Assembly: GCA_027083135.1 (NCBI GenBank)
Contig: JALWQH010000023.1
Span: 543-64,542 of the forward strand
Source of the DNA: Desulfurococcales archaeon
Lineage (GTDB): Archaea; Thermoproteota; Thermoprotei_A; Sulfolobales; WAQK01
DNA: 64,000 bases
Direction: 5' to 3'
The translations under genes and the position numbers were made by a program. The notes below the pieces were generated by a model. It made no database searches, had not been told where the DNA came from, and worked only from the letters and a program-made list of their open reading frames with translations. Below, one piece after another: positions 27,454 through 59,801 of this stretch. How positions within the stretch are numbered: the stretch's first letter is position 1; every line of letters begins with the position of its first letter.

Positions 27454-27467
27454 TCAGCACTCAAGAC
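27454..27467 (+). repeat. attL core TCAGCACTCAAGAC
   Basis: Exact copy at 59744-59757; 72 bp upstream of the integrase; inner arm GGGATGTAGAA at 27481-27491. Confidence 0.85.
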
Positions 27468-27539
27468 TCTCATCACAGCGGGGATGTAGAACCTCACTTT
27501 CATCTAGGTCTCCCCCCATTATATATTCTCTGAGGATCG

Positions 27540-28661
27540 ATGGGGGAGGGCGTGTACGACTATAGGGAGTCGGAGTACTATAAGAGGCTTCCCCGGGACA
27601 TTAGGGAGCTACTGGACGACTTCTACTCCTGGATGCTGGGGAGCATGAGGGAGACGACTGCAGGGAGGTTTGCGTGGGATGTGGCCAGGATCCTAGTGGA
27701 GGAGGCCTTCAACCCCCTCGACCTAGACTTGGCTAAGGCCAGGAGGGTGGTGGCAAGGGTCTCGGGTATGAGGCCCGGCACGAGGAGATGGTACGTGTCC
27801 CTCATGAGGAGGCTCGCCGCCTACCTCTACGAGATACACGGCTCGGAGAAGGCAAAGGAAATACTCGAGAAGCTCAAGTCCCCGAGGGTCAGGCTTCCCC
27901 CACCCGAAACCCTCACACCCGAGGAGGCCGAGAGGCTGCTGGAGGAGGCCAGAACCCTCAAGAACAAAGCCCTGATAGCCGTGCTCCTAGAGGGAGGCTT
28001 GAGGATAAGCGAGGCCCTCAGCCTCAGAATAGGGGACGTGGAGTTCGACGAGTATGGAGCCAAGCTCTACGTAAGGCAGAGCAAAACAGAGGCTAGGCCA
28101 GTAAGGATAATCAAGTACACCCACATCCTCCGGGCATGGCTTCAAAGCCACCCCCAGAGAAACAACCCCCAAGCATGGCTATTCCCCAAGGCAACAAACC
28201 CTGATAAACACATGACCCCCCAAACCGCAAACAACAATATCAAAAGAATAGCAAGGAGGGCAGGAATAAAGAAGAACGTACACCCCCACATCCTAAGACA
28301 CACCAGGGCAACCATGCTAGCCACAAGGCTAACAGACAGAGAAATGATGATGGTATTCGGCTGGAAAACAGTAGAAATGGTGAGGAGATACACACACCTA
28401 ACCATGAGAGACGTGGAAACCAGCCTCCTCAAAAAGGTCTACGGAATAGACAAGGACGATGACAGGACACCCCTAACCACCAAGACCTGCCCTAGATGCG
28501 GAGCCCAAAACCCAGCCCAAGCAAAATTCTGCTGGAACTGCGGATACCCATTCGAACAAGTACAAATCCAAATAATCAAGAAGGAAACAGAGACCGAGCA
28601 ACTAGCAAGAAAAATAGCAGAGCTATTGAAGCAGAATCCAGAGATACTAGGACAGCTGTGA
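27540..28661 (+). CDS. int: Tyrosine integrase with C-terminal Zn ribbon (SNJ2-like architecture)
   Basis: GLRISE (R), SKT (K), HILRH (HxxR), FGW, RRYTH (Y); CPRC...CWNC; gene intact, not split. Confidence 0.95.
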
Positions 28662-28663
28662 TT

Positions 28664-29233
28664 CTACCATACTGCTGTCATCATTGCCAGCCATATTAGG
28701 CCAGCCACGGCCAGCACTGTTAGGCCTGCTGAAGCCAGAGCTGTGCTCAGGCTCCCCCTGCCAGCCTCAACCCACCCATACTTGTAGAAGAGGGGTAGGG
28801 GGATGAATAGGAGAGGGATAGTGAACTCCCAGTAGTGCAGGATAAAGCCCAGCAGGATTGCGGCAAGCATGTAGGAGGGAGCCAGGATCAGGGACTCCCA
28901 GAAGCCCAGCCTAAGCCTAGGCATCCTCCCATACCAGTAGGCCAGGCCCAGCACGCCTAGGATGAGGGGGGAATCCCACAGCAAATCATACATCCAGCCG
29001 ACACCCAGAGGACCCAGGGAATGCCACATCAACGTGCCTGTCAGGAACACAGCCAGCCACGGCATACGCGTCCAAACAGCCGCCAACACTAAGAGCACCA
29101 CTACAGGCTCAAACCAGAGCTGCGTATCCCCAGCCACGGAGTAGACAGCGAATCCTGCTAGAAGCCCGAAGCCCCAGCCAGCCATACCCACAACAAACAC
29201 GGATAAAGCTAAGCCAGCCCAGCGGGACAACAC
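28664..29233 (-). CDS. Viral polytopic membrane protein
   Basis: Hydrophobic 189 aa, last gene of the minus-strand virion module. Confidence 0.7.
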   Translation of the reverse strand: MLSRWAGLALSVFVVGMAGWGFGLLAGFAVYSVAGDTQLWFEPVVVLLVLAAVWTRMPWLAVFLTGTLMWHSLGPLGVGWMYDLLWDSPLILGVLGLAYWYGRMPRLRLGFWESLILAPSYMLAAILLGFILHYWEFTIPLLFIPLPLFYKYGWVEAGRGSLSTALASAGLTVLAVAGLIWLAMMTAVW

Positions 29234-29292
29234 TATATCCCAGCATAATTACTGCGGATAAAAAATAAAACAATATTGATTGTAGCACAGGC

Positions 29293-31356
29293 CTAACCCG
29301 CAGGCTCCAAGTGGATCCAGTCCAGCCTAAGGCCGTTCTGATAGCTATTTATAGTGTCAGCAGCATCGCTGAGAGCATGGCCCACAGAGGTTGACACACC
29401 CCTCACAATCACCCCGACCTCAACATAATATGTCCCTGGAGACAGGTTGCCGATATTAGCCGTCAGCGTTACAAGGCCTCCCTCCTCCACCACATTAGTG
29501 CTGGAGCCTATATCCTTGATTATCTTGCATGCCCCTGCAATGGCATTATGGTTGGAGTCGTAGACCATGTATGAGAACTCTATCTCAGCCTCATCTCCAG
29601 GCGTCGAGGCCTCGAGACGATAGCTCAGAGCAGCAGCCAGCGAGAGATTATAGTTGCCTGACTCCTCCACAGGGAACTTGAAGACAGCATACTGGTAGTA
29701 CCAGCCCTCCTCACCGTAAGCCGTATTTATATGAGCAGTTATCACGCGGCCATCATAGGATGTCGAGCCATGAGTATCACCCTCCCCGCCGCTGTCATGG
29801 CCAGCATCATATATCTCGCCTCCACCAGTATCCACATGGGAGCTCGGATAGTAGGGTGTCCTGCCAAGCTTCTCATACTCGCGGAGAGCCTGGATAGCCA
29901 GGATAGTCGTCTCACTATTCGTGAAGGCGAACGGGTTCTCAGGCTCAGCCATCATCCTGAACCCAGCAATGTAGATGCCATGGTTCTCGAGGAAGCTGAG
30001 GACATGCTTGTCGATCAGGCTTGCAATATTCTCAGACCATGCGAACAGGCCTGAGTCACCCCACCCTGTGGAGACCTTCTCCACACCGTCTATCCTGTAG
30101 CCGCTTGCAAATGACCCCCTGTAGGTGGCGAGCTTAACGGTGATCCCGTCAACCTCCTCCTCATAGTCCCACTGAAGCTTCACCAGGATGCCTGCCAGCC
30201 TGTCAGCCATGGCCAATATGTCCTGCCCATTAATGTACCGGTCCCCAGTAATCCTATAGTACTTGGAGAGCACTATGAGCAGAATAGCGTTGAGATAAGT
30301 AGGGTAGTTGGAGTAGTAGAAGGTGTAGGAGCCCCGTCTAAGCCCATAGCCATCCCATCCACCCTCATCAAGGGCCTCGGAGATGAGGCTCTCAGCCTGG
30401 CTCTGCCCATCCGAGCCATACCTGTCAAGATACCATGCAGCCTTAAGCAGCTTATAGTACACGTGGTGTTCAAACATGGTGTACCAAACATCAGCGCCTA
30501 GATCCTCTATAACTGAGACAACCTTGCTGTAATACGGGTAGAGATCCCTCTCAGCATTAATGCCGCCGAACCATGGGAGATCACTGTACCCCTTGCCCTT
30601 CCACGTGCTGACAGCCTCAGCCGCCTGGTCGAAGTCAGCAACATTCCCGCTCTTACCGAACAGCGGGTCATACACGTCGAAAGTATAGCCGTGATCCTCC
30701 ATGAAGTTAAGCAGCTTCTGGGCAAGGCTGGGCTGATAGTCTTCGAGAAGCCAGGCAGCAATCCTGGTGGAGTGCCTAGCAACATACCTCTGACTATAAT
30801 ACCAGGCATCGCCTCCAACATCAGCCGTCAGGGTTATGGAGGAGCCCAGGTGGATCTCATGCTGGTAGACCACGGGGTAGGAGCCAACCCTCAGTATAAC
30901 CCCGCTGAGAGTACACTTCTCAACATAGATGTACAGCTTATCCTGAGTATAGCTCCCATCATTATAGTACCTCACATAGAGAACCACATCATAATCCCCG
31001 CTCTTATCAGGGTTAAAGTAGAACCTCATGTAAACACCGTCAGACTGGAAGCCAAGCAGCTCAGCCTTATAGTATGTGTGCTTAGGCTCATAGAAGCCGC
31101 CAGCCATGAAAAGCGTATTATTATAGATTATCGCTATAGGTATGCCTACATGGTCACGCATAACAGCCTCATTATCATTGATCTCCGCGACAGCCCTGGA
31201 AACCCATGAAATACCCTTAGATATAGCCTCCTCCACAGGGTCGCTGGGAGGCTCATCCACAGCCAGCACCACGGCAGGCCCAGCCACGCTGAACAGGAAG
31301 AGAGACAGGATTAGTATAGCGCCTACAGCGTATAGGAGCCGCACCCCCAATATCAC
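29293..31356 (-). CDS. Secreted virion protein, putative alpha/alpha-barrel spike or adhesin
   Basis: Signal peptide, Tyr/Gly-rich, helical core with TNSETT, beta-rich C-terminus. Confidence 0.6.
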   Translation of the reverse strand: MILGVRLLYAVGAILILSLFLFSVAGPAVVLAVDEPPSDPVEEAISKGISWVSRAVAEINDNEAVMRDHVGIPIAIIYNNTLFMAGGFYEPKHTYYKAELLGFQSDGVYMRFYFNPDKSGDYDVVLYVRYYNDGSYTQDKLYIYVEKCTLSGVILRVGSYPVVYQHEIHLGSSITLTADVGGDAWYYSQRYVARHSTRIAAWLLEDYQPSLAQKLLNFMEDHGYTFDVYDPLFGKSGNVADFDQAAEAVSTWKGKGYSDLPWFGGINAERDLYPYYSKVVSVIEDLGADVWYTMFEHHVYYKLLKAAWYLDRYGSDGQSQAESLISEALDEGGWDGYGLRRGSYTFYYSNYPTYLNAILLIVLSKYYRITGDRYINGQDILAMADRLAGILVKLQWDYEEEVDGITVKLATYRGSFASGYRIDGVEKVSTGWGDSGLFAWSENIASLIDKHVLSFLENHGIYIAGFRMMAEPENPFAFTNSETTILAIQALREYEKLGRTPYYPSSHVDTGGGEIYDAGHDSGGEGDTHGSTSYDGRVITAHINTAYGEEGWYYQYAVFKFPVEESGNYNLSLAAALSYRLEASTPGDEAEIEFSYMVYDSNHNAIAGACKIIKDIGSSTNVVEEGGLVTLTANIGNLSPGTYYVEVGVIVRGVSTSVGHALSDAADTINSYQNGLRLDWIHLEPAG

Positions 31357-31397: not shown

Positions 31398-31673
31398 TCA
31401 CAGGCTCCGCATCTTCCTCTTAACATAGTCTAGGATGCTTTCACGCGTCTTGGGGCTCCAGCCCCTAACCTTACTGTTATTCTTAGGCTTAGAGAGACGT
31501 ATGAGGAGGAGAAGCCTACCCCTAGCCGTCTTCTTGGAGATCCTGTGCCTCCTATAATCCCTCACAATAGCCCGGGCAATACTCCTGAACTCCGAGGGCC
31601 TGTCGAGACCCTTAAGCCCCCTATCCTTAACCCTCCTCCCAAGATACTTGTAGCGCCTAGCCACGCCTACCAC
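31398..31673 (-). CDS. Small highly basic protein, VP2-like virion nucleoprotein candidate
   Basis: 91 aa, strongly Arg/Lys-rich, located in the structural module. Confidence 0.6.
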   Translation of the reverse strand: MVGVARRYKYLGRRVKDRGLKGLDRPSEFRSIARAIVRDYRRHRISKKTARGRLLLLIRLSKPKNNSKVRGWSPKTRESILDYVKRKMRSL

Positions 31674-32085
31674 GCCTCCGCCTATATCTGCGTTTCATGG
31701 TGCCAGCATCTATCCCCTCAATATCATAGCGCTCAGGATGGTTCATCCACCTCTCAATCATGACTATGCTCCTAGGATTAGGCTTAGGCCTAATAGTCCT
31801 CCTAGCCCTATACAGGTCATCCATACGCTGAGCCCTCTCACTCCTACCCTCATGCAGCATCTGAGCAGTATAGAGGAGCTGGCTAAGCGTCTCCTCGAGA
31901 TCCCCCCGCCTATAATCACCCCTCACAACCAAGCTCCTAATATGCCTGAGATTAGCCCTGTAGCCAAGCCTAGGATCAATCTCAGCCCTAACATCAATAG
32001 ACTCGGGATCATAGCCATGCCTAACAAGGTATTTCCTAATCATACGTATCTGGAGAGACACGGGCATACGCCTACCCATACACAT
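31657..32085 (-). CDS. Basic viral protein of unknown function
   Basis: Arg-rich, WMNHPERYDIEGID motif, overlaps the next gene. Confidence 0.65.
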   Translation of the reverse strand: MCMGRRMPVSLQIRMIRKYLVRHGYDPESIDVRAEIDPRLGYRANLRHIRSLVVRGDYRRGDLEETLSQLLYTAQMLHEGRSERAQRMDDLYRARRTIRPKPNPRSIVMIERWMNHPERYDIEGIDAGTMKRRYRRRRGRRG

Positions 32086-32106: not shown

Positions 32107-33402
32107 TCACCAAGTCTCAGGGAGTTCGAGGATCTTTCTCCTGCTCCTGGCTGCAACTATGAGCCTGTAAACCATTATGATGATGTTGAGCATCAATACT
32201 ACTCCTAGGAGAAGCCCTGAGGCTGAGAGGATCACGCGGTCCTCGGAGCCAGAGGCATAGCTGTACTCCCTAGCAGTGAGAAGAATACCGTAGCCTGAGA
32301 CAAGGCTCATAACAGCCGCGGCTGGAACCCCTAGAAGCCAGGAGACCAGGGGGCTGAACAGGGAGGCTAGGAGGACAACAATGTAGAGGCCTGAGAGCTC
32401 CAGCTTCTCCCTATGCTCCACCACCAGGGGCTCAGTGCTCGGAGGCCCCGAGAAATATACCTCCACCTCAACATACATGGAGGAGCTCCAACTAACAGAG
32501 GCCTCAGGCACCAAGCCATCACCAGTGCTGGGCCCTGAGACCACCAGGCTCCCCAAGACAGCACCGCTAGAAGGATCCCTGAAAACCACGTAAGAGCCCA
32601 GCGGGAAGAACAACAGGTGGAGGGCATTATCACCATAGGCCCCATGAATAACCCAGACCCACCGCTCGTCAGGCTCCCTAGCAACACTCCCCTCAATGCC
32701 CCCCCAAGCATAGAGGCCGTAGAACCCCTGGCCTGAAAGCCAAGTAGGATCAAAGAGGAGGACAGGGCTCGAGACCGTATGATTATCCCATAGCTCCTCC
32801 AGCCCTCCTAGCCCCAGGCTCCTCGGGAAGCCTGCAACGTATCTTATCTCACCCCTCCACCTCTGAGCACTCATCTCACTCCCATTATAGCTGCTAGTAC
32901 CTATCAGGAGAGAGTTGTTTAGACGGGAGCCAGCACCGCTCCAAGAAGCCTGGGCTGATAGGGCACCGTTCACGTAGAGGAGGATGTGGGTGGAGTTGGA
33001 GACCCCCGCGATCCTGGTCCAGCTCCCCTCGCTCGCAGGGGCTCCCTCAGCCACAACAGTAGAGCCTGAGGAATCCCTCCTAGCAAAATCCCAGCGGTCG
33101 GAGACCTGGCTGACGTAGAGCCTCCAGTCAAGCTCATCCTTACTTGCAATAGCGTTCCAGTCAGGAGTGCTGTAGGCCTTAACCATAGCCGCAACAGTCA
33201 GGTCAGGGCCCTCCAGGGCATCGGTGTGGGGGAACACCACGTAGCCTGAGCCATTCAATACGAGCTTGTAGGCATGATAACCCAAGGCATCCCCGGGCCC
33301 AAGCTCAACACGGAACTCCACGTCGGGGCCCGAAGCCCCAGCCACAGGGGCTAGGACGAAGGAGGCGAGCAGGATAACTATGAGCAGCAAGGCAGGCCTC
33401 AC
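32107..33402 (-). CDS. LamG/concanavalin A-like membrane-anchored virion protein
   Basis: Signal peptide, LNGSGYV...W.RIAGV...LYVNG...LLIG...WRGEI LamG pattern, three C-terminal TMs. Confidence 0.8.
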   Translation of the reverse strand: MRPALLLIVILLASFVLAPVAGASGPDVEFRVELGPGDALGYHAYKLVLNGSGYVVFPHTDALEGPDLTVAAMVKAYSTPDWNAIASKDELDWRLYVSQVSDRWDFARRDSSGSTVVAEGAPASEGSWTRIAGVSNSTHILLYVNGALSAQASWSGAGSRLNNSLLIGTSSYNGSEMSAQRWRGEIRYVAGFPRSLGLGGLEELWDNHTVSSPVLLFDPTWLSGQGFYGLYAWGGIEGSVAREPDERWVWVIHGAYGDNALHLLFFPLGSYVVFRDPSSGAVLGSLVVSGPSTGDGLVPEASVSWSSSMYVEVEVYFSGPPSTEPLVVEHREKLELSGLYIVVLLASLFSPLVSWLLGVPAAAVMSLVSGYGILLTAREYSYASGSEDRVILSASGLLLGVVLMLNIIIMVYRLIVAARSRRKILELPETW

Positions 33403-33459: not shown

Positions 33460-33732
33460 CTACTCGCCGCTGAAGCCTCCCGCCACGACACGTATCATTA
33501 TCATCACTAAGCCCACTATCGCTACTGCAAGCGCGATGATTATGCCTGTCCCAGCAAAGCTCTGAGCCGTATTAATACTATTAGTGAACTCCTGGGGGAT
33601 AGTTATAGTAGAGTTGTTGAGATTGCTGGTTATAGTGTTGAAGGCTCCGAACAGTAGTCCAAGCCCTATAGCCACCCCCGCTATCATCGCTATTAGGAAC
33701 AGCCATCCCAGCAGACTATTCATAGCCACCAC
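33460..33732 (-). CDS. Major capsid protein candidate, spindle-shaped virus type
   Basis: 90 aa; two hydrophobic helices separated by an Asn/Thr/Ser loop with N-x-S/T sequons; followed by a U-rich terminator-like tract. Confidence 0.75.
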   Translation of the reverse strand: MVAMNSLLGWLFLIAMIAGVAIGLGLLFGAFNTITSNLNNSTITIPQEFTNSINTAQSFAGTGIIIALAVAIVGLVMIMIRVVAGGFSGE

Positions 33733-33765: not shown

Positions 33766-34092
33766 CTATTCCTCAGCACTCCTCCTCCAAGCACCGTAAA
33801 GCAGGCCTGCCAGAGCAAGAGCGGCAACCATGAGGATCCACTTCCCAGTATAAAGGCTGGCTACAACAATAGCCGAGACACCCGTCGCTGCAAGACTCCT
33901 AGTCTTAAGATAAACACTGGCAACAACAAGGGGGCCCAGCAAGGCTGTGAAGAGCCCGAAGGTGGAGCTACTCCACCATTCAACCATAGCTGTGACATTC
34001 AAGGGGTCGGGGAACGTTATGCTGGGCGGGGAGGGAGGCTCAGCCCCAGCCAGCACGGCTAAAAGCCAGGTAGGAATAATCACTCCAGCCAC
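33766..34092 (-). CDS. Small viral membrane protein
   Basis: Hydrophobic 108 aa, RBS present, structural module. Confidence 0.7.
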   Translation of the reverse strand: MAGVIIPTWLLAVLAGAEPPSPPSITFPDPLNVTAMVEWWSSSTFGLFTALLGPLVVASVYLKTRSLAATGVSAIVVASLYTGKWILMVAALALAGLLYGAWRRSAEE

Positions 34093-34096
34093 CCCT

Positions 34097-34468
34097 CTAG
34101 CTAAGCATTCTGAAAGCCAAGCCCCTGAAGAACTGCACAGCCGCCAACAGCAGGCTGACGGTTCCCAGGAGGTTAAGCCCCGTTACCAGGCTGCTGGGAG
34201 GAGGGAATGGCAGGAGGCCTGCCACAGTATCCCCCAGCAAAGCGGCTCCAAGAATCACTTTCCAAAGCTTCTCGAAAAGCATGGGGAGCTGGACAACCAT
34301 GTAGAGGGGATCATACTTCATACTAGTAGCCGCCTCAACATCGCTCTTATCAACATTGAAGGGCATCGAGCCTGGAGACAAGCCGTAAGCCTCCCTAAAC
34401 GCACTTATGCTGAGGCTCAGCAGGAATATGAACATCGCTATGCTCAGAGCCCTCACATCCACCCCCAA
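34097..34468 (-). CDS. Small viral membrane protein (minor virion protein candidate)
   Basis: Hydrophobic termini, tightly packed operon. Confidence 0.7.
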   Translation of the reverse strand: MGVDVRALSIAMFIFLLSLSISAFREAYGLSPGSMPFNVDKSDVEAATSMKYDPLYMVVQLPMLFEKLWKVILGAALLGDTVAGLLPFPPPSSLVTGLNLLGTVSLLLAAVQFFRGLAFRMLS

Positions 34469-34485
34469 TAACCTGATGCGGAGCC

Positions 34486-37203
34486 CTACACCCTCCTCCT
34501 ATAAACGAAGCCAAGCCCGCCTAGAATGAACGCTAGGCCCAGCACAGCATCAGGGACGGAGAGCCAGCCCCAATACCCAAACGTGGCCAGCAGGCCAGCA
34601 CCCACCACGGCGAAGAACCCCGCGGTAGCCTCATTGGCCAGCAGCATGACTCCGAGGATGACTACAGCCGCCACTGTGCCCTTATGCTCCTGCAGCCAGT
34701 CTGGGAGAGGCAGCGTAGCATTCCTCCCTGGACTCCACTTCCAAGGCCATGAGGAGACCTTCCAGGAGCCCTCCAGGTTGCTCTTAATCTCAGAGCCGCT
34801 GAGGCTGCCCACATAGCCCACCACAATAGTGGATGTTATCCTATCCACAAACCCCCTAATATAGAGGAGACCATTAGACTCATTATAATAGTAGCCTACA
34901 ACACCAGTATTGTTAAGCTCATCCAACGATGAAACATTCCTCAGCTCCACGCCATCCATGGAGACATAGTCAAGGCTACCCACAATATGGAGGCACACAG
35001 TGAACTCTGCGAAAGGCTTCGTGTCAAGCTCCAATGTAAGCCTCGACTCAACAGCAGTATCATTAACCACACCCACCTCCTCGTAAGTAAACTGGGCTAG
35101 GGAAGCACCCCTAACATACTCGAAGCCGAAGGCCATGTGCCTCTCATAGTTCTCGAGGAGGTAGAGCATGCCTGTAGCCACGCTGCTCTGAGTCTCCACG
35201 TTGGTCTCATCAGCCCCATCCCACGTAAGCTCCCACAGCTCATCGCTCAGCAGGCTCCAAATCCTGTTCAAAGACACGATCAGCTTGGGATCAGTCCAGT
35301 AATAGTAGCTCATAGCCTGGAGGAAGTAGCCCTGAGCATAAGGCTCCTTCTCATCCAAGTAGCCCTTATACCAGTACTCCCCAGGAGCCTCATCCAGGCT
35401 CCTATACCTATAGTAATAATACCTGTCGTAAACACTGTCATAGTGGAACCAGTTGTTCATCAAGTAGTCGACAGCCTCCTTATACGTCTCATTCTTAGTC
35501 CTATCATACAATGCTAGGAGAGCATGAGCCACCTCAGCATTAACATCGAGATAAGTAGCGGCTCCGAACGGCGGGGGAATATCAAGGAACCCCCCGTTCC
35601 TAACATCACCTGGATCCCTAACCTGGCTTCTAAGCAGAGTATTAGAAGCACTAATAGCCTCGGACAAGTAGGTCCTATTCCCAGTATAATCATAGATGTA
35701 AAGAGCCGACAAGATATAGTTGCTTAAAGCCCTGTTGCTGACAAACCAGCTCCAAGAGTCAAACACCTTCTTAACAGTGGCGAACACGTTCTCCACGAAC
35801 TCGTAGTCGCCAACCCTGAGGGAAGACATAACTATGGAGGCCATAGCAAACCCCTTGAAAACACCCGTACCAGTATTAACAGCGAAGCTGAAGTCCCTGC
35901 CATCAAAGCTATCAACATTGTACAGCATATCCTCGTAGACCTTGTATAAGCCTGGAGCAAAGCTCGACATAGGAACGATCTTGAACTCAACACTGCTTGA
36001 AGAATTAGTGGAGTTTGCAGTCAGGTTGCCCATCTGAACCTCAAACTTCATCCACCTGAAATACCAGTCATAGTCAGGCTTCTGCCTATTACCATAACCC
36101 CACACATGCACACCCTTATCAGCAGGGACAAGAACCGCGAAAGCCCTGTTCATACCTATAGGCCTCTTAGTGAAGAACAAGGCCAGGCGCCACCCATTCC
36201 TCTCCTCCCACACGTTCTCCCAGCTACGCGCCAAGTGGTACTCCTTCTCATCACCGCTGCTCAGAACACTCCCACTAGTAGAAGCATTAACCAAGCCTAC
36301 ACCTGGAAGATAAGCATACTGGTACTGCCACCAATCCAGGTTATCGAAAGCCAATGTAACCCTGACGTTAGTCAGATTCATCCCCGAAATATTAGTGACA
36401 TTAAACCTGACGAGAACATAGGGCTTCCCAGGAATAACAACATAGTCCTGCACATAGCGGAGGACACCGTCACTCATAACCCTCTCAAGCACGTAGCTCG
36501 AACCATCCTGATATATCCTGGCATCAATGATCCTCCCATCACCCAGGCTCCCATCACCCGTATCCCATATACCCCTATAATCCGAGCCGTTAACAGAGCC
36601 GTTAAAATACCAGACCTCAGTCGACTTAATGTTAGCGAGATACCACAGGTTAGGCCACGAGAAACCATGCTCCAACACATTATTGTAATCCTTATAGATG
36701 TCCATTGAGAGGACAATGCACCTACCATACTTATCAGTCCTATTCCCAGCGAGATCACCGCCCACATTGACGATAAGGTTCCCAATACTCGCATCACTCA
36801 GATTAGTCGACAAAACCCTATCATAGGGATCCGTGACATACCTTGTGAACAAGTATATGTCCCCGCCATCCTGGTATGAGAGAAGCTCCTTGTACTTAGA
36901 GATAAGGGAGGATAAGAGATCACTGTAGCCGAGGAACACTAGGAGCTGGGCAGCCTCACCCTGCTCAGTATTCCAATGCCACCTCTGCCCCTCAGGTGTC
37001 CCCCAAGTCTCCCTAAACAGCCCCGTGGAATTATCGTAGAGCCTCTGGACAAGGACCTCAGCCATCCTCCTCCACAAGTGAGGGTCAACTACGAGGAGCT
37101 TGCTGGGAGTAACCCAGTCAGCCACCCCTCCCCTAGCAGTAACACCCGCCAGAGGAGCTGCGAGAAGCATGAGTAACAGTAGGGGAAGGACAGCACGCCT
37201 CAA
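34486..37203 (-). CDS. Large membrane-anchored virion protein, glycoside-hydrolase-like alpha/alpha barrel (tail spike candidate)
   Basis: Signal peptide, many sequons, WNTEQGE, DVNAEVAHALLALYDRTKNETY, TNVETQ motifs, C-terminal TMs. Confidence 0.7.
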   Translation of the reverse strand: MRRAVLPLLLLMLLAAPLAGVTARGGVADWVTPSKLLVVDPHLWRRMAEVLVQRLYDNSTGLFRETWGTPEGQRWHWNTEQGEAAQLLVFLGYSDLLSSLISKYKELLSYQDGGDIYLFTRYVTDPYDRVLSTNLSDASIGNLIVNVGGDLAGNRTDKYGRCIVLSMDIYKDYNNVLEHGFSWPNLWYLANIKSTEVWYFNGSVNGSDYRGIWDTGDGSLGDGRIIDARIYQDGSSYVLERVMSDGVLRYVQDYVVIPGKPYVLVRFNVTNISGMNLTNVRVTLAFDNLDWWQYQYAYLPGVGLVNASTSGSVLSSGDEKEYHLARSWENVWEERNGWRLALFFTKRPIGMNRAFAVLVPADKGVHVWGYGNRQKPDYDWYFRWMKFEVQMGNLTANSTNSSSSVEFKIVPMSSFAPGLYKVYEDMLYNVDSFDGRDFSFAVNTGTGVFKGFAMASIVMSSLRVGDYEFVENVFATVKKVFDSWSWFVSNRALSNYILSALYIYDYTGNRTYLSEAISASNTLLRSQVRDPGDVRNGGFLDIPPPFGAATYLDVNAEVAHALLALYDRTKNETYKEAVDYLMNNWFHYDSVYDRYYYYRYRSLDEAPGEYWYKGYLDEKEPYAQGYFLQAMSYYYWTDPKLIVSLNRIWSLLSDELWELTWDGADETNVETQSSVATGMLYLLENYERHMAFGFEYVRGASLAQFTYEEVGVVNDTAVESRLTLELDTKPFAEFTVCLHIVGSLDYVSMDGVELRNVSSLDELNNTGVVGYYYNESNGLLYIRGFVDRITSTIVVGYVGSLSGSEIKSNLEGSWKVSSWPWKWSPGRNATLPLPDWLQEHKGTVAAVVILGVMLLANEATAGFFAVVGAGLLATFGYWGWLSVPDAVLGLAFILGGLGFVYRRRV

Positions 37204-39492: not shown

Positions 39493-39517
39493 GCATCAAT
39501 CCCCAAAACAAAATGCG

Positions 39518-40304: not shown

Positions 40305-40309
40305 GCAGG

Positions 40310-48251: not shown

Positions 48252-48257
48252 GCATCA

Positions 48258-49600: not shown

Positions 49601-49601
49601 C

Positions 49602-50005: not shown

Positions 50006-50008
50006 GAC

Positions 50009-50403: not shown

Positions 50404-50409
50404 GATTAC

Positions 50410-50837: not shown

Positions 50838-50839
50838 GG

Positions 50840-51508: not shown

Positions 51509-51632
51509 TTTATCACCATTACTCTAATGCCAATAATGACATATAAGTATTATTGACATAAATGGGGTAAAGTCAATATGCCTAACTTATCCAAATAAAC
51601 GTAATTTTATAAAGAGGCCATCTAGATCCATA
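51509..51632. promoter_or_regulatory. Divergent promoter / putative lysogeny switch region
   Basis: AT-rich, TATA boxes on both strands; inverted repeats CAATAAT/ATTATTG (51531-51555) and TATTGAC/GTCAATA (51551-51578). Confidence 0.7.
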
Positions 51633-51815
51633 GTGATAATATTGGGAGAAGAGATCCATGTTGGAAGAGTAATTGAGAGAAGAGTAGGGCCCTACGCCTC
51701 CTTTTACCTAAACATCCCCAAGCCTATAGCACTAAAACTTAAAGTTAGAAAGGGAGATGTCTTCAAAATTGAAATAATTGATGAAAAAACCATAAAGGCT
51801 ACAAAGCTAACTTAA
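51633..51815 (+). CDS. AbrB/MazE-like regulator
   Basis: VGPYASFYLNIPKPIALKLKVRKGD. Confidence 0.85.
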   Translation: MIILGEEIHVGRVIERRVGPYASFYLNIPKPIALKLKVRKGDVFKIEIIDEKTIKATKLT

Positions 51816-51841
51816 CAAAAGCATGCAAAGAGGCAGCAGAC

Positions 51842-52033
51842 ATGGAGAAAACCAAATACTACATTGTGAGGATAACTGAGAAGAAGGTTGGGCCCTACAG
51901 CTCATTATATATGAACATCCCGAAAGAACTAGTCATGAGACTAAGCCTAAAGAAAGGAGACATAGTGAAAATAACCGTAATCGAGGAAGAGGGAAAGAGA
52001 AGCTTCAAATGCGAAAAGCTGGAGCTAAGCTAG
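51842..52033 (+). CDS. AbrB/MazE-like regulator, tandem paralog
   Basis: VGPYSSLYMNIPKELVMRLSLKKGD. Confidence 0.85.
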   Translation: MEKTKYYIVRITEKKVGPYSSLYMNIPKELVMRLSLKKGDIVKITVIEEEGKRSFKCEKLELS

Positions 52034-52703: not shown

Positions 52704-53888
52704 CTATATCGGTAGCTGTTCATGTATTGATGTAAGTATTCTGCTGGCCTCTTCGTCTGATTCTCCGCTCATCATGTCTATTGCTTCTATACGTCTCCTC
52801 CCCTTCTCCGCGATTTTACAGGCATAGTATGGGTAATATATTAGCCTGTAATCCTTGACTACTCCCTCCCAGAACACTTTAACCATGTTTTCAAGGCCGC
52901 TTAGATTTAGCTTGGGAGTTAAGATTGCTTCTTTACTGCTTTGCAGAGGCTTTAGAGGCAGCTGAGGCGCCAGTGTTCTCAGGGCTGCTGGATCAGGGAT
53001 CCTCTGTTTCAGAACATATATTCCTCGCCCACCCTGTGCAACCAGCCCTTTGATGACGAGGCCTTGAACTATTCTCCTAGCCTTGGATGTAGAGCATCCT
53101 AGAAATGCTGCTAGGCCTGAAGTAGTTATCTGGGGGCGTACTAGGAAGAGTTTAAGAGCCTTGGCTTCATCCTCAGTAAGCCTTGAGATACGCAGCACCC
53201 TCTCAACCCGTTTTCCAGTATAGTTGCAGAGGCTTCCATCCATAGCATCTACAAGTATTGCTGAATTAACTATTAGCTCCTTAGTCGTCCTCCTAAGCAC
53301 CCCCCTCGAGACATATATTTTTCCTTCAATATGGGCCTCATAGAATGGGTAAAATATAACGGCGCATTCCTCTATAGCTCCCTTCATACCGAGGAAACCC
53401 TTAAGCTTTCTTTCAACCACTAGCCTGCATTGTCCAGCCCCTATTCTCGGCTCCACGTAGAAGGCATTCTGGGGAGCCTTTGCCTCCTCTAATGGTATTT
53501 CGCCTAATAGTTCTCTCAGCTTCGCCTGATCCCATAGGTCTATGTTGTAGCCCGAGGCTGTTGAGACCGCGTCAGGCGTGAAGTAGGATGTTGTGACAAG
53601 TATTCCCCTATCTACTCCTAGGTCGTTCACCTCGCTTATGAGCTTCATAACTATATCCTTGTTGACAGGCTTATCGTAGGCCTTGCATTCAACTATTATC
53701 CTGGAGGTGTGGAGAGGAGCCTTATACTCAGCGTAGACATCTATCTGGTGCTTGACCCCTGAGCGCCCCACCAGCAAGGCATTATGCTTAGCATAGTACC
53801 CCTTAGCCTCGAAGAGCCTAGTAATAAGCTTCTCAAGCTCAACACCCTTCTCATAAGCCTTCTCATAAGCGTTCTCCAACACCCTCAC
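52704..53888 (-). CDS. Mrr-like restriction endonuclease fused to a wHTH-containing C-terminal region
   Basis: ELEKLITRLFEAKGY, HQIDV, IVECKAY, GILVTTSYFTPDA. Confidence 0.85.
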   Translation of the reverse strand: MRVLENAYEKAYEKGVELEKLITRLFEAKGYYAKHNALLVGRSGVKHQIDVYAEYKAPLHTSRIIVECKAYDKPVNKDIVMKLISEVNDLGVDRGILVTTSYFTPDAVSTASGYNIDLWDQAKLRELLGEIPLEEAKAPQNAFYVEPRIGAGQCRLVVERKLKGFLGMKGAIEECAVIFYPFYEAHIEGKIYVSRGVLRRTTKELIVNSAILVDAMDGSLCNYTGKRVERVLRISRLTEDEAKALKLFLVRPQITTSGLAAFLGCSTSKARRIVQGLVIKGLVAQGGRGIYVLKQRIPDPAALRTLAPQLPLKPLQSSKEAILTPKLNLSGLENMVKVFWEGVVKDYRLIYYPYYACKIAEKGRRRIEAIDMMSGESDEEASRILTSIHEQLPI

Positions 53889-54039
53889 TATTCCAAATAT
53901 AAAACACGAAGGAGAATTTAAAGGAATAACATCTCCAGAACACTACACAACGTTGATCCCAACTAATCGATAACAAAAACACCTCAAACCAAGCATTTAT
54001 GCTGAAACAAGCCTCTATAATTCAATGAAGGTGAAATAG

Positions 54040-54531
54040 GTGGCATTAAATCTCCTATACTTTGCACAGGTGGTGTTCGAAGGAGCAATGGTAATAGGCA
54101 CCTTCCTGATGGCTATCATGACAGGCCTTATGGCATTAGAAACCATGAAGGATAGAAGACTAAGATTAATAGAGAAGAGGTTGGACGAGTTCTATATGCC
54201 GCTCATAGAGCTCTTCTCCACGCCCGCCTTGAAAGATCAGAGATACGTTGAAAGGGTGAATAGAATAGTTATTGGTAAGCGGTATCTCAGCGGGCCTAGG
54301 ACTGCTAGGGTTTTACCTTCAACCTTCTCCCCTAAATTCCAGGTTGGTGGCCAAGAATACAAGCTGGGGGAAGAGGCTGGGACCTGGCGGAGGGTGGCTG
54401 ATGTTATCTGGGAGGAGGCGAAGAGCTATATCGAGCAATATTACCGCTTAGGAGGCATAAGGGACTACTCTCTGCCCAGGGAGAAGCCTAAGTGGCTGTT
54501 CTCAGAAAGTACTGGCTTTAAGGGAGCTTAA
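54040..54531 (+). CDS. N-terminally anchored hypothetical protein
   Basis: One TM followed by IEKRLDEFYMPL; GGTGA RBS. Confidence 0.7.
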   Translation: MALNLLYFAQVVFEGAMVIGTFLMAIMTGLMALETMKDRRLRLIEKRLDEFYMPLIELFSTPALKDQRYVERVNRIVIGKRYLSGPRTARVLPSTFSPKFQVGGQEYKLGEEAGTWRRVADVIWEEAKSYIEQYYRLGGIRDYSLPREKPKWLFSESTGFKGA

Positions 54532-54687
54532 GACTACTCGCATGAAACCCGGAGTTGCTCAGCAAGGATGTGGAATGGCCTGCTGAGGAAGGTGAAGTCT
54601 GCCTAAGAGGGCATTAGATGCTTTGCGGTGATTAATAGCCATGAATAGCTGTCGAAATAATAGTAAACTATGCAAGGCTTACGTTTT

Positions 54688-55545
54688 TTAACTGTTTATT
54701 TTGGGAAGATTCTTCAGCAGGTTTTCTAGTTCTTTCCATGTGAGTATTATTGCTGGGTAGGGTGTTTTTCCTTCTCTTTCCTTGGCTATTACTCGGCGGA
54801 TTTCTTCTAGCCTTGTCTTCTCGTGTGGTGGGACCAGGTATACTGGGATGAACTTTACGTGGGGGAGGCATTGGGCTATGTCGTCGTACTCTGAGCTGAA
54901 CTCCTTGGCTCGTTTCACCAGGTCTCTGCGTACGCCTGTCCTGACCTGTAGGGCTATTTCTACTCGGCGTGGATCAGGGGGTATGGCGGCGTCTACTTCG
55001 ATCTCCTTGCCTCCGCAGTGTATCTTTATCTTGCCGCAGGGGTGGCCGTGCTTCTCGGCGAGCTCTCTGACAGCTTCTTCTATGCGGGCCCGGTAGTGGC
55101 GTTTCTGGTGTTCCTCCCAGTTCTTGTAGAACTTATATATCACTGTTTCCAGGTGGAGGGGGTGTTTCAGGCTGCTTGACACGAGTTCTGCGAACCTGTA
55201 GGCTGTCCTCGTCTTCCTCCTGAAGGCCTCAGGCCTCCTCAAAGTGTAGACGTCGTCTATTCCTGCTAGGCGTTCAAGCTCCCTGACGCTGAAGCCGCAT
55301 ATCATGACGAAGAAGGGTATCATGACGCCGGGATCCCTCGCCATGAGCCCGTATATGTCTCTAGGGGAAGCCTTGTCGAATCTTATGAGCCCTGTCTCCT
55401 CCTCGTAGAGCCTTGATTCCACCAGTATTCCGCCGATCCTCCTAGCCATGTCGTCGAGGTCGGAGTAGAGGTGGGGGAGCTCCTCCTTATTTGGCCTCGG
55501 AATCCTGGCCAGGATGTCCTCCACCAGTCCTGCAGGCCTGCTCAT
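54688..55545 (-). CDS. Putative type II restriction endonuclease
   Basis: Coupled (ATGA overlap) to the MTase; EVDAAIP...IALQVR variant of PD-(D/E)XK. Confidence 0.65.
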   Translation of the reverse strand: MSRPAGLVEDILARIPRPNKEELPHLYSDLDDMARRIGGILVESRLYEEETGLIRFDKASPRDIYGLMARDPGVMIPFFVMICGFSVRELERLAGIDDVYTLRRPEAFRRKTRTAYRFAELVSSSLKHPLHLETVIYKFYKNWEEHQKRHYRARIEEAVRELAEKHGHPCGKIKIHCGGKEIEVDAAIPPDPRRVEIALQVRTGVRRDLVKRAKEFSSEYDDIAQCLPHVKFIPVYLVPPHEKTRLEEIRRVIAKEREGKTPYPAIILTWKELENLLKNLPKINS

Positions 55546-56978
55546 AGTAGTTGCCTCAGGCTAAGTGTTTTCACGCCCTTTGAATAAAGGCTTTCAGGGA
55601 TGGGCAGGTTTTTGAAGAGCGTGGCCTGTAGTCTGAGGTACCCGTTGGCCGCCCTCTGGGCATGCGCCTCGATCCACATCTCCACTTCTCTGCTGCTAAG
55701 GTATTCTAGGAGGCCTGGTATGATGGAGGGGTTGCGGGGGACAAGGTAGTAGACGTTGTGTCTGGGTATTATTCGTCCCTCAGGGTCCCACCAGAACCTG
55801 GGCTCCTTCTCCACGTCTCTCCAAAGGATCTTGGGCTTAGCCAGGGTCTTCATAGGCGGGTTTTCGTGGAAAGCATACCATTTCTTCCCAACGATCCTCA
55901 CGGCCCTCCTCTTCTCGAGCTCCCCTCTATGCCTCGCAAGGTATTCTAGGAGGGGCTTGGCCTCCTCTTCGCCTAGGAGCCGCCCCTCCCTGTCATAGGG
56001 GACGAGCATGACGTGCTTTAGCTTGGAGTAGTCTATGGGTCCCCCTGCCTTGAAGCGTGCCAGCTCCTCCCCGCTCACCGTGGGCCAGGCGTAGGGCCTG
56101 AGCTCCTCGGGGAGCATATCCCTCCTAACCACGAAGATGTTGTCTCTCCCCGTGGCTACTCCTGCGCTTATCCTGACGCATATTTCCCTGAGCCTGTGCT
56201 TGTACTGTTTGAGCCTGGTTGGCTGCAAGCGGACCATGGCTTCACCCAGCCAGGGCGACCCGTCCCTGGGTAGATACACAGTGGTTCTGGAGCCGTCTCT
56301 GAGGATGAAGGTTGTAGGGCCTGGAGCCTCCTTGTCCACCACTGTTACCGCGGGGTAGGCTAGTATTTCTCCGAAAGCCTCCTCCTCAACCAGCTCCACC
56401 TCCACCACATGGTGCTGGGCTAATAGTCTCCGCAGGGCTCGGGCAGAGTGGACGTATAGGTATTTCTCAGGCGTTATGAAGACCAGTCTGCCCCCAGGAT
56501 TGAGGAGCCTGAGAGCCTTCTCGAAGAACAACATGTAGGTGTCGAACCTGCCTGTAGCCGTCCTGTAGAGCCGCTTATACTTCTCCCTGAGATCCATGGG
56601 CAGCCTCTCAATCGAAATGTAGGGCGGGTTGCCTACAACATAGTCGAAGGCTCCGAGACCCTCTAGGAGGAGGAAGTCTCCCTGCACAATGGTCACATTG
56701 GACAGGTCCCTGTACCTCGCCCTACAGGCCCTAGCCATACCCGCATCTATCTCCACACCCACGATCCTAGGAGGCCTCACCCCCCTCCTCTCACACCACC
56801 GGAGAACACCGTCAATGAAGGCTCCAAGCCCGCAGCCTGGATCAAGAACCCTGTCCCCAGGCCTAGGAGCCTTCCCAGCAAACAGCTTCCCAACCATACG
56901 GTCAACTAGCCTCGGCGGCGTGAAAACCACACCCTCAGCAGCCCTGATCCTCTGCCTCCCCACAGCCATGCACCACAA
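55542..56978 (-). CDS. N6-adenine DNA methyltransferase, gamma class (TaqI/Eco57I-like)
   Basis: VFTPP, VLDPGCGLGAF (motif I), GNPPY (motif IV), C-terminal target recognition domain. Confidence 0.93.
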   Translation of the reverse strand: MWCMAVGRQRIRAAEGVVFTPPRLVDRMVGKLFAGKAPRPGDRVLDPGCGLGAFIDGVLRWCERRGVRPPRIVGVEIDAGMARACRARYRDLSNVTIVQGDFLLLEGLGAFDYVVGNPPYISIERLPMDLREKYKRLYRTATGRFDTYMLFFEKALRLLNPGGRLVFITPEKYLYVHSARALRRLLAQHHVVEVELVEEEAFGEILAYPAVTVVDKEAPGPTTFILRDGSRTTVYLPRDGSPWLGEAMVRLQPTRLKQYKHRLREICVRISAGVATGRDNIFVVRRDMLPEELRPYAWPTVSGEELARFKAGGPIDYSKLKHVMLVPYDREGRLLGEEEAKPLLEYLARHRGELEKRRAVRIVGKKWYAFHENPPMKTLAKPKILWRDVEKEPRFWWDPEGRIIPRHNVYYLVPRNPSIIPGLLEYLSSREVEMWIEAHAQRAANGYLRLQATLFKNLPIPESLYSKGVKTLSLRQLL

Positions 56979-57103
56979 GCAATCCTACATTCTTCACAGA
57001 GACTTAATACTAGCCGTATTTATAAGGGCCTCTAGGACTTAATTATTTAGTCCATAAATCTTTAATTATAACATGATATAGATCAGGGATACAGCAGGTC
57101 TAT

Positions 57104-57703
57104 GTGAAATGCTGGGTTGCCAAATATACTGAAGGTGGCCTAATAGTGTCCGGTGAACGGCTCGATATAGAGTGCCCTTACTGTGGAGCTATAATCAGCC
57201 TCTTCCTGAAGCCTAGAACTATAGAACTTCAGGGAAGTTTATCTACGGCTTCATTAGCAGTTAGTATTTCAGGAGGGCCGGTAGCCATATCCAGTATAGA
57301 TGTTTCCTGCAATTTTTGTGGAAGCCGGTACAGGTGGTACCGCATAGCTTCCCGGGATGTGGTTACCATGATAAGGTATACTGAGGCTTTTCTCGGCTGG
57401 CTCAAAAGATATAACCTGCCTCTAGAGAAGCTGGAATCATATATTATTGCCGTAGTTGAGCCCAAGACAAGCCGCTGGGCCCGGCTCAGGCATCCTTTCC
57501 GTAGAAGAAGGCATGGAGAAGCTCCCTTCAAGCTCGTGGAACTAGTCCTTAAGGTTGAGCGTGAGGGCCGTATCTACAGGGCCGCCGTGCCCGGCAAGCT
57601 CTACCTGAAGCCCCCATTTCACATAGATGTAGCTCCCGGCACCTGGATGACTGGCCCGCCTCCTGAGAGGCAAATCTCAAATAGCTTGGGGGAGGGGAAG
57701 TAA
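57104..57703 (+). CDS. Zn-ribbon hypothetical protein
   Basis: CPYC and CNFC pairs; first gene of a three-gene operon. Confidence 0.65.
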   Translation: MKCWVAKYTEGGLIVSGERLDIECPYCGAIISLFLKPRTIELQGSLSTASLAVSISGGPVAISSIDVSCNFCGSRYRWYRIASRDVVTMIRYTEAFLGWLKRYNLPLEKLESYIIAVVEPKTSRWARLRHPFRRRRHGEAPFKLVELVLKVEREGRIYRAAVPGKLYLKPPFHIDVAPGTWMTGPPPERQISNSLGEGK

Positions 57704-57704
57704 A

Positions 57705-58262
57705 ATGAGTGAAGAGGAACTCAGAATGACCCTATCCTATGAGGAAGCACTTAAAAAATACAAGGAGCTTCCCAAGCCTGTGTTAGGGCAGGACGAGCTC
57801 GTGCTGCTGCTCCTCGGCCTCCTTGACAAGCCAGTTAATGGCCGCACCGTGTTGATGAAGGAGCTCTTCCTGCTCCACGAGGAGCTCAAAAACAAGGTTC
57901 AAGTAGCCTCGCCTAGATTCTATCCTTATAAATACGGGCCCTTCAGCTCTGAGCTCCTCCTAGTCGTGGAGCTGCTAGAACGCTATGACTACATCTCAGT
58001 TAAGAATAGGCGTACACGCACGGCCACCAAGTATATGCTTACCAGTAAGGGAAGAAAAGCCGCTAAAGCTGTGATAGAGAGGCTCACCCGGATCCTGGGG
58101 GAAGGCTACATTGAGAAGCTTAAACAACTAAGAATTGGATGGGATCAGCTGGGACACCACGGCATATTAAACTACGTATATAAACTATACCCTGAGTATA
58201 GGGAGAAGTCGCTGCTTAAAGAGAAGTATCAACCCATGGACTGGGGGGTATCAGAGGCTTGA
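57705..58262 (+). CDS. Panacea/SocA (DUF4065)/YwgA-like antitoxin-type protein
   Basis: GRTVLMKELFL, FYPYKYGPFSSEL, YMLTSKG, YVYKLYPEY. Confidence 0.75.
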   Translation: MSEEELRMTLSYEEALKKYKELPKPVLGQDELVLLLLGLLDKPVNGRTVLMKELFLLHEELKNKVQVASPRFYPYKYGPFSSELLLVVELLERYDYISVKNRRTRTATKYMLTSKGRKAAKAVIERLTRILGEGYIEKLKQLRIGWDQLGHHGILNYVYKLYPEYREKSLLKEKYQPMDWGVSEA

Positions 58263-59551
58263 TTGAAGTAAAAGTGAGAAGCATCGTTGAAGAAGGCCCT
58301 GGATTCGCCAGAACCGCTGAGATAACCATAGATAATATACGGATAGAGACGCCGAGCAGAGTCTTGGTGCGCACGGATCTTAACGCTAAAAGAAGCGTGC
58401 CGACGCAAATAGTCCTGGAAAACAAGCTTGTTCTTCTAAACATACCGCTAAGCGCCTTAACCCTTGCAGGAGCACCATCTGATAAGGCTGACCTTCACCT
58501 ATACAGGGCTGTCAGGGAGCTGGAAAGATTATACGGAGATCTCTATGGGATTCATGGGCTAATACCCTACCTTTATCCCAGCGGCAAGGGTTCTGAGACT
58601 TTCCTGAAAAGCGTTAGGCATGTGAGAGAATTTGTTTTAAGACAGCTACCAATGTTGCTGGGAGCTCCAAGAGATTATCGTTTCACAACAGTGCTTATCC
58701 CGCCTTTAGGAGTGCCTCTCCATGAATACAGGGATCTGCTTAAAAACGCGGCAAAACGGTTTGAACAGCTAGGGATCGAGATCATCCCAGTGCTCGATAT
58801 AGGCCTAGGAACCAAGAAGTTCATCCCCCTGTTAGACTACGTTGTCAACGAGTTGGATGCCCGTATGGTCTGCATAAAATACAGGGAGATAACCAGCCAC
58901 TTAACGGCTTATCAGCATCTGCAAAACTTCATGGATAGAAGCGTAGGCTTCATGTACATAGACGTACCCAGACACTATGACTTCGCTGTAAAGGACTTTG
59001 CAATGACGCATCTCGTCCCACTGCTTGGCAGCGACCTTATAGCCCCGCATCTACCCTCATATAAGGGTAGATGGACCCCCCTAAGATTTACGCATGGAAG
59101 CTTCAGGCTTATGCATAGAAAAGAACTCAGACTTCCACCCATCTCAAAGCTACACCCGCAAACCCGGGTCAACCTTCTAGACGAACTCGAGATAAACTTT
59201 GACAGAGCCATGCTGTCAGGAATGAGGAGATTCATTGTGGAATACAAGCCCATAGAAAGGGATATGCTGAAAATAACAGAACTACAACAACAGGTAAAGG
59301 CGTTTAGAGAGAGGCAACGCCCTATACCCGACGAATTTAAGAAGGAACTGAGAAAACTTAGAGGTCGGCTGACAAGCCTCTATGCTTTGACGCGCATCCA
59401 GGAAGTTAAGGCCAGCACCAAGGAGTTCGGAACTCTTCGACACTATATGAAGTCAGGGGAAATGAAGGAATATACCCAGGATAGGCGTACACTTAGCAGG
59501 GCTATCCAGGTCCTCAGTGATCTTAGTAAGCAGTCTTCCTTATTCAAATGA
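58259..59551 (+). CDS. Hypothetical protein with a tRNA-guanine-transglycosylase-like N-terminus (TIM barrel candidate)
   Basis: FARTAEITIDNIRIETP resembles the TGT N-terminal motif; IIPVLD; no CxCxxC Zn site seen. Confidence 0.45.
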   Translation: MIEVKVRSIVEEGPGFARTAEITIDNIRIETPSRVLVRTDLNAKRSVPTQIVLENKLVLLNIPLSALTLAGAPSDKADLHLYRAVRELERLYGDLYGIHGLIPYLYPSGKGSETFLKSVRHVREFVLRQLPMLLGAPRDYRFTTVLIPPLGVPLHEYRDLLKNAAKRFEQLGIEIIPVLDIGLGTKKFIPLLDYVVNELDARMVCIKYREITSHLTAYQHLQNFMDRSVGFMYIDVPRHYDFAVKDFAMTHLVPLLGSDLIAPHLPSYKGRWTPLRFTHGSFRLMHRKELRLPPISKLHPQTRVNLLDELEINFDRAMLSGMRRFIVEYKPIERDMLKITELQQQVKAFRERQRPIPDEFKKELRKLRGRLTSLYALTRIQEVKASTKEFGTLRHYMKSGEMKEYTQDRRTLSRAIQVLSDLSKQSSLFK

Positions 59552-59740
59552 TGAAGACTTAGGCTTCCAATAAATCATGATTCACAGGCAAAGATAGTAG
59601 CCTGCTTGCTACACACATGCCTTACCCATACTACGTATTTTCGCTTATCCATCGCCTGTAGAACCTGCCGACTTTCACAATCAAATCCTTTCACGTTAAG
59701 ACTATCCTATCCATGGAAGGAAAAGTTTCTACATCCCAGG

Positions 59741-59801
59741 GTGTCAGCACTCAAGACCCTCTTCATCTCCCAGGGGATCAGCACTGCCGAGCTCATCACA
59801 C
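59741..59801 (-). ncRNA. Box C/D guide sRNA containing the attR core
   Basis: gtg-TGATGA(C)-gctcggcagtg-CTGA(D')-tcccctggg-AGATGAA(C')-gagggtcttgagtg-CTGA(D)-cac; TTTAAA at 59829-59834 upstream. Confidence 0.88.
59744..59757 (+). repeat. attR core TCAGCACTCAAGAC
   Basis: Exact copy of 27454-27467; inner arm TTCTACATCCC at 59727-59737. Confidence 0.85.

Follow-up and report, generated by a model that had tools for sequence, protein, structure and literature searches.

An apparent APSV1-like provirus flanked by copies of the 3′ terminus of a predicted C/D sRNA in a Desulfurococcales archaeon

Element boundaries, predicted guide RNA and integrase

A 64,000-nt stretch of DNA from a Desulfurococcales archaeon (assembly GCA_027083135.1, contig JALWQH010000023.1, positions 543–64,542; hereafter the window, in whose numbering coordinates are given) holds a 32.3-kb element that we describe here as an apparent provirus related to the archaeal spindle-shaped virus APSV1 and lying at a predicted box C/D small RNA (sRNA) gene. 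A 14-bp direct repeat bounds the element, with copies at 27454–27467 and 59744–59757. With one mismatch allowed, the 1.75-Mb assembly contains these two copies and no others (none for the reversed control), their identity stops at the core without extension on either side, and no third core copy was found inside the element at up to two mismatches. Both junctions are bridged by contigs of the likely source run, which is not independent of the assembly. This run carries the label hydrothermal vent metagenome. No RNA dataset was listed as containing the stretch searched, a result without bearing on expression. The two virus-side flanks of the core carry an 11-bp inverted repeat (right arm at 27481–27491, left arm at 59727–59737), a length of at least 11 being reached by 3 of 5,000 random pairs of such stretches; in the circular form, these arms would surround the core. 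The element is 90% covered by 46 open reading frames (ORFs) and has a G+C content of 51.3%, compared to 50.6% for the genome, with a dip to 39–42% at 44–47 kb. No tRNA gene was found in the 64-kb window, and a tRNA was rejected as the integration target on that account.

A predicted box C/D sRNA on the minus strand (59742–59801) has the core copy at 59744–59757 as its 3′ end. Boxes C (59799–59793), D′ (59781–59778), C′-like (59769–59763) and D (59747–59744) follow one another in order within about 60 nt, with the D′ guide at 59792–59782 and the D guide at 59762–59748, both on the minus strand. Read on that strand, the repeat is the last 14 nt of the sRNA, namely the end of the D guide and box D. 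The displaced att core at 27454–27467, likewise on the minus strand, comprises the last 10 nt of the D guide and box D and is preceded on the virus side by a C′-like box. A TATA-like hexamer lies about 30 nt upstream of the sRNA (59834–59829, minus strand), and full-length alignments to 59741–59805 were obtained for five of Rfam's archaeal C/D families.

Over 14 nt, including one G-U pair, the D guide pairs with the anticodon arm and first intron bases of the genome's own tRNA-Leu(UAA), and none of 300 shuffled guides reached its score of 13.5 against 43 tRNAs. Ribosomal RNA was assessed as a D-guide target in the 16S and 23S sequences of relatives, where scores were at most 9. By the D+5 rule, which gives a guide's methylation target, the D guide points to position 34 of the tRNA. 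The orthologous guide of a related genome (G013) pairs with tRNA-Leu(CAA), with a Watson-Crick pair at C34. The same position is the target of C/D sRNAs known in Pyrococcus for tRNA-Leu(CAA) and tRNA-Leu(UAA), according to a passage of PMC7994747.

Next to the displaced core, 72 bases away, lies the gene for a 373-aa tyrosine integrase (27540–28661, plus strand). The enzyme is unsplit, ends in a C-terminal Zn ribbon and shows the motifs GLR, HxLRH and W..Y with its catalytic residues kept (R155, H250, R253, W275 and Y284). It belongs to a broad archaeal family of 30–45% identity, with one 58% relative. Non-suicidal archaeal integrases of the pNOB8 and SNJ2 families have their att site upstream of an intact int gene, as stated in part of PMC5861418. 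The element shares this layout: the intact gene sits beside an att core outside the gene, and duplication of the core would leave an RNA gene with a complete 3′ end. It differs from these systems in that its target is a predicted C/D sRNA, and the likeness is one of layout.

Affiliation with APSV1 and gene content

When 50 ORFs of the element were compared with the 53 APSV1 proteins (E < 1e-4), 15 matched and one further match was weak. Twelve are colinear: the 162-, 339-, 148-, 316-, 246-, 558-, 97-, 905-, 123-, 108-, 90- and 431-aa proteins correspond to orf9–12, orf14, orf16–20, orf21/22 and orf23, respectively, and no break was seen in these genes. The colinear core orf9–orf23 of APSV1-like viruses, with its ATPase, large membrane protein, hairpin proteins and LamG protein, is therefore present, and orf3, orf31 and orf48 are also shared. 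The two genomes are of similar scale (38 kb for APSV1, 32 kb for the element). Given protein identities of 30–53% and patchy DNA similarity (the longest match is 735 nt at 67%), the element is a distinct relative of APSV1. APSV1 has two capsid-candidate genes where the element has one, and the cargo of the two differs, APSV1 itself carrying a DNA methyltransferase. The SSV-type, tRNA-targeting split integrase that is a trait of APSV1-like viruses was not found here: the integrase of APSV1 is annotated as SSV-type, whereas that of the element is unsplit, with a Zn ribbon and an apparent guide-RNA target, and matches orf53 at E 1e-4 only. Likely, this virus lineage swapped the split tRNA-targeting integrase of APSV1 for one of a branch that targets guide-RNA genes. 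Decayed APSV1-like remnants with an SSV-type integrase at tRNA-Asn were seen in two related genomes (G094:C40, ~75.4–81.5 kb; G061:C1, ~397–412 kb), which shows that viruses of this group usually have the split type of integrase.

The putative virion genes run on the minus strand. After a 189-aa multi-membrane protein and a 687-aa signal-anchored protein (28664–31356), which have no known homolog and are likely surface or accessory proteins, come two basic, likely nucleoprotein genes of 91 aa (orf31, 53% identity) and 142 aa (31398–32085; 33% and 24% Lys plus Arg, respectively), the 431-aa membrane-anchored LamG/concanavalin-like protein (32107–33402; orf23; PF13385, E 1e-16) and the 90-aa hydrophobic protein (33460–33732; orf22/orf21). 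The 108-, 123-, 905- and 97-aa membrane proteins (33766–37493; orf20, 19, 18 and 17) are likely virion tip or minor components; the 905-aa protein is membrane anchored. They are followed by the 558-, 100- and 246-aa proteins (37517–40258), of which the first resembles orf16 over 74 aa and the last is orf14, and by the 316-aa B251/DnaA-like ATPase with its 148-, 339- and 162-aa neighbors (40310–43167; orf12, 11, 10 and 9).

The 90-aa protein is predicted to be the major capsid protein. It has two hydrophobic segments, 19 relatives at E ≤ 0.001 and an AlphaFold model that folds as a hairpin of helices 2–40 and 47–86 (pLDDT 87). Hydrophobic helical hairpins are typical capsid proteins of spindle-shaped viruses, according to a passage of PMC12934983. 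No tblastn match was obtained with it, nor any PDB sequence match at E < 0.1.

The 316-aa ATPase (phrog_5484, E 8e-45) matches 71 viral records, the best being APSV1 at 45% identity. With SSV4 (NC_009986.1), the fusellovirus tested, the element shares this B251/DnaA-like ATPase (E 1e-31), similar-sized genes preceding it and a hydrophobic two-helix capsid candidate; the element differs in being twice as large and in having an unsplit integrase outside tRNA genes. Searches by phmmer and small profiles gave no similarity to VP1, VP3, ORF280 or ORF152 of SSV4, these being sequence methods that leave room for remote homology, and sequence searches with the 90- and 339-aa proteins gave no fusellovirus match. 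The membrane segments of the 339- and 148-aa proteins are also placed otherwise than in ORF280 and ORF152, the positional counterparts of B277 and A154, so that the resemblance to the B277-A154 pair is positional only. Judged by these comparisons, the element does not appear to be a fusellovirus, the B251-type ATPase being the sole thing it has in common with SSV4.

Small hydrophobic two-helix proteins could also resemble pilins, and structural comparison matched no solved capsid; the element might on these grounds be a conjugative or pilus-bearing integrative element and no virus. We regard this as extremely improbable. Twelve colinear genes match APSV1, and the ATPase, in addition to its viral matches, had a single match among 72,556 plasmids, to a 5.7-kb non-mobilizable Sulfolobus plasmid, with no conjugative plasmid. 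No conjugation family (VirB4/TraG-type ATPase, relaxase) was matched by the element's proteins in Pfam or PHROGs.

Beyond the ATPase run lies a second recombinase of 172 aa (43524–44042, minus strand), a bicaudavirus-type tyrosine recombinase reduced to its catalytic domain (R46, H122, R125, H148 and Y157). It matches 25 records of the phage collection, all bicaudaviruses or related large spindle viruses. It is 30–44% identical to the integrases of SMV1, ATV, ATSV and STSV1 (44% over 128 aa), with catalytic motifs kept, and lacks about 70 N-terminal residues of the SMV1 enzyme. Of six SMV1 proteins tested, no other is common to the element except for a weak ATPase match. As a guess, the 172-aa enzyme resolves replication dimers.

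A low-GC accessory stretch (44183–47140) encodes 226-, 129- and 291-aa proteins and a helix-turn-helix frame, only the last of which could be given a family. The 332-aa protein (orf3), a small-gene operon with a ribbon-helix-helix gene and divergent AbrB-like genes (47253–52033) are likely the early region and switch; two of the three AbrB-like genes match PF04014, one of these weakly. The cargo region (52704–59551) encodes a Mrr-like nuclease, an AF_0924-like protein, a restriction-modification (R-M)-like pair and 199-, 185- and 430-aa proteins. The pair consists of a 285-aa ORF adjoining an Eco57I/TaqI-like adenine methyltransferase and is likely a type II R-M pair. The last three proteins form an operon (57104–59551). 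The 199-aa protein is Zn-finger-like and, like the 185-aa protein, winged-helix-like; the 185-aa protein matches PDC-M19A of PADLOC and, weakly, DarG. The 430-aa protein had no match in Pfam, NCBIfam or PDB, and in the Atlas it falls in unnamed archaeal clusters with a weak TGT lead (0.82). The operon is a candidate defense or DNA-modification module.

An earlier note on this DNA had proposed a roughly 32-kb, apparently intact provirus, spindle-virus-like and mosaic, with an unsplit Zn-ribbon integrase. As far as sequence data go, that description of the element is borne out, its ends and genes being as described; the docking site at a predicted C/D sRNA, which is what makes the element unusual, and the nature of the 172-aa recombinase had gone unrecognized. 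The candidates it had named, namely a two-helix capsid protein, a basic nucleoprotein, LamG and large spike proteins, and an early operon with a switch, all have counterparts in the genes above. Its likening of the 339-aa/148-aa/ATPase run to B277-A154-B251 stands for the B251-type ATPase and for gene position and fails for sequence and membrane topology. Its mosaic, probably unclassified lineage is mosaic, with a described relative in APSV1. The two outcomes that it had named as fatal, a 90-aa protein and ATPase of conjugation or pilus systems and near-identity to a described virus, were not what we found.

The docking site and the integrase family in other archaea

The site is widespread. 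Of 351 genomes from the class to which the host belongs, 147 contain a 13-mer of the core, compared to two matches for the reversed control. Among 70 distinct copies inspected, a non-random sample, C and C′ boxes lie upstream of 37, a C-like box only upstream of 10 and neither upstream of 19, with the remaining four cut by contig ends. The 19 box-less copies, which have enough upstream sequence, together with Rfam scores below threshold would suit a dedicated dif-like recombination site whose C/D look is accidental or secondary. We consider that explanation very improbable, as four boxes stand in order, the guide can pair with tRNA-Leu and its complementarity reaches into the intron of the host's own tRNA, and the box-less copies are displaced insert ends or lone matches in other contexts.

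Other inserts at the sRNA occur in several related archaea. In G345, a 9.4-kb insert separates a full sRNA from a bare core, beside which a broken integrase of the family lies on the opposite strand, a layout as in the element. In G337, an sRNA, an integrase, cargo and a second core extend over about 3.6 kb (two contigs overlapping by 55 nt); this locus was found by a search with the integrase alone and is therefore independent of the sRNA-core pattern. The sRNA is followed by broken integrases in G181 and G019, and inserts without an integrase lie between cores in G001 (3.06 kb), G094 (0.86 kb) and contig C4 of G019 (3.0 kb). Five genomes (G046, G077, G102, G013 and G185) have extra 13-mer copies that were left out of the insert count, as they resemble lone matches. 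A class-wide integrase profile search, with 29 loci examined, revealed other C/D-like RNAs upstream of integrases in L420, L423 and, more weakly, L422, and tRNAs in four loci; the profile was built from site-linked integrases and is circular for those.

As the other inserts are small cargo cassettes (0.9–9.4 kb), the element could be a composite, in which an sRNA-docking defense island, contributing the integrase, the att pair and the R-M cargo, has an APSV1-like virus as its passenger; the 172-aa enzyme would then be the virus's own, and the 32 kb would perhaps never be packaged whole. The cargo at 52.7–59.6 kb without APSV1 match and the presence of two recombinases also fit such an origin. 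It is nonetheless unlikely in our judgment, because there is no third core within the element at up to two mismatches, the run of virion genes ends in direct convergence with the integrase gene, and APSV1 itself reaches 38 kb with a DNA methyltransferase.

Outside the left core, at 25597–27290, two tandem vapBC-like pairs (PIN and AbrB) were observed. The PIN toxin at 25597–26007 is 68% identical to the PIN protein of the G337 insert, and the first 36 nt left of 27454 match the arm behind the sRNA of G342 at 21 positions, which 1 of 500 shuffles reached. On these two resemblances, the sRNA site may already have received an earlier cassette, now to the left of 27454; a far core for it was not found at up to two mismatches.

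To place the integrase, 97 loci of its family were collected from public genomes and metagenomes. A tRNA lies within 600 nt in 22 of them, and 14 show an sRNA-3′-end pattern, which was drawn after the fact from these loci and in 12 of the 14 cases read by eye. A full C/D pattern fixed beforehand was found in 4 of 80 upstream windows (one looks spurious) compared to 4 of 655 control windows. The sRNA cases are mostly from Micrarchaeota. In these, the D guide is complementary to the conserved 1400 region of 16S rRNA at 9 of 10 positions, with the mismatch at D+5, and the D′ guide pairs with the 16S 3′ end (L381, L382 and L387; 16S loci L405 and L407); this sRNA may assist folding instead of guiding methylation. 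The Micrarchaeota core repeats in tandem, with four more copies 1.6–2.2 kb apart in G331. Core arrays with conserved upstream arms and 1–5-kb spacing were also noted (G331:C4, 499.5–531.1 kb; G335:C140; G328:C6; G332:C49), often without an integrase between cores, as in an integron-like stacking.

In a FastTree tree of 109 sequences and 388 columns, the integrase of the element groups with those of G345, G181, G337, L422 and L423 in a clade of support 0.984, in which no member is tRNA-adjacent. The Micrarchaeota integrases form a separate clade (1.0), behind another C/D sRNA. That the move to sRNA genes happened at least twice is a reading of the FastTree tree only.

Proposed integration at the guide RNA gene

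We consider it probable that the element is a provirus related to APSV1 and delimited by two copies of the final 14 bases of a predicted C/D guide RNA gene, that gene likely serving as the attachment site for the element's intact integrase. A circular viral genome would carry an attP composed of the core and the 11-bp inverted arms, and the 373-aa integrase would recombine it with the sRNA gene's 3′ end. Because the incoming core supplies an identical guide end and box D, both would be rebuilt and the sRNA would survive whole, as tRNA genes do with tRNA-targeting elements, and would go on guiding 2′-O-methylation of tRNA-Leu at position 34. Upon induction, the element would be excised, replicated with the aid of the B251-type ATPase and packaged in a spindle-shaped particle built of the 90-aa hairpin.

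Several observations weigh against this explanation. At the level of the DNA, the attP and empty-attB joints expected from excision are absent from the contigs of runs X1 and X3, contigs being prone to drop rare forms, and depth is flat over the junctions. For the sRNA, every Rfam score falls far short of the gathering threshold (best 18.4 versus 45 bits); since guides vary among these families, the low scores bar membership of those families only. The D+5 pair with tRNA-Leu(UAA) is G-U, and tRNA-Leu(CAA), the expected Watson-Crick partner, was not found in this assembly. Among the integrases, 46 of the 97 family loci show no tRNA and no sRNA end, a further 15 being too short to tell, about 10 other members of the element's own clade show no sRNA, and G345, G181 and G019 have broken integrases. 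The 172-aa recombinase, and not the 373-aa integrase, could be the acting enzyme. The 90-aa capsid candidate has no sequence match to VP1 or VP3 of SSV4 and no Foldseek match in PDB, so that the capsid assignment depends on topology, position and the APSV1 orthologs.

A broader scenario, which as a whole we hold to be slightly better supported than not, is that Zn-ribbon tyrosine integrases of one widespread archaeal family left tRNA genes at least two times for the guide and box D that end C/D sRNA genes, that the guide for the tRNA-Leu wobble position is a class-wide landing pad on which viruses, toxin-antitoxin pairs and defense cassettes stack in an integron-like manner, and that the present element is a whole inducible spindle virus using a site of this kind. 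Mimicry of tRNA anticodon-loop DNA was considered as a possible route of the integrase to the sRNA site.

Section 19 of PMC8371274 names tRNA genes, intergenic regions and protein-coding genes only as archaeal att targets. The part of PMC7994747 that concerns C/D sRNA genes states that their mobile features remain to be discovered, and the portion of PMC6009581 that describes sRNA copies like miniature inverted-repeat transposable elements contains no mention of integration ("integrat"). In a full-text literature search, most subscription journals lying outside its coverage, no account of an archaeal att site in a C/D sRNA or snoRNA gene was found. Added here are a whole APSV1-like provirus at a predicted C/D sRNA and a tRNA-Leu guide as a class-wide target. 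Searches anchored on tRNA genes would miss elements in C/D sRNA genes, and some att sites recorded as "intergenic" may be unannotated sRNAs. With a class-wide 14-bp core, an intact hyperthermophilic integrase and a readable attP, the system lends itself to a direct recombination assay, and the core and integrase are a possible integration tool for crenarchaea. APSV1, so far unclassified, gains a complete relative, and an integrase exchange within its lineage is likely.

Relatives of the element were also looked for more widely. IMG/VR was searched with the ATPase and the 905-aa protein, with no relative found, and with the 14-mer, which gave 80 loci, none matching any protein of the element. 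The 34 CRISPR spacers of the host genome had no real match to the element (a single 14-nt match) or to APSV1. Homologs of the 905-aa protein without other APSV1-like genes were seen in L031, L032, L036, L039, L034 and L045 (family f9), four of them with tRNA-Thr within the stretch examined; the orf18-type protein may go back to a host gene that the virus acquired or to a viral gene that became domesticated. A genome of the same family as the host (G002) contains two further APSV1-like element fragments. In the host genome itself, two more B251-type ATPases, each near tRNA genes, likely mark further proviruses (C34, ~40.5–41.2 kb; C54, ~33–41 kb), and a related integrase is encoded at ~11.6–12.1 kb of contig C44.

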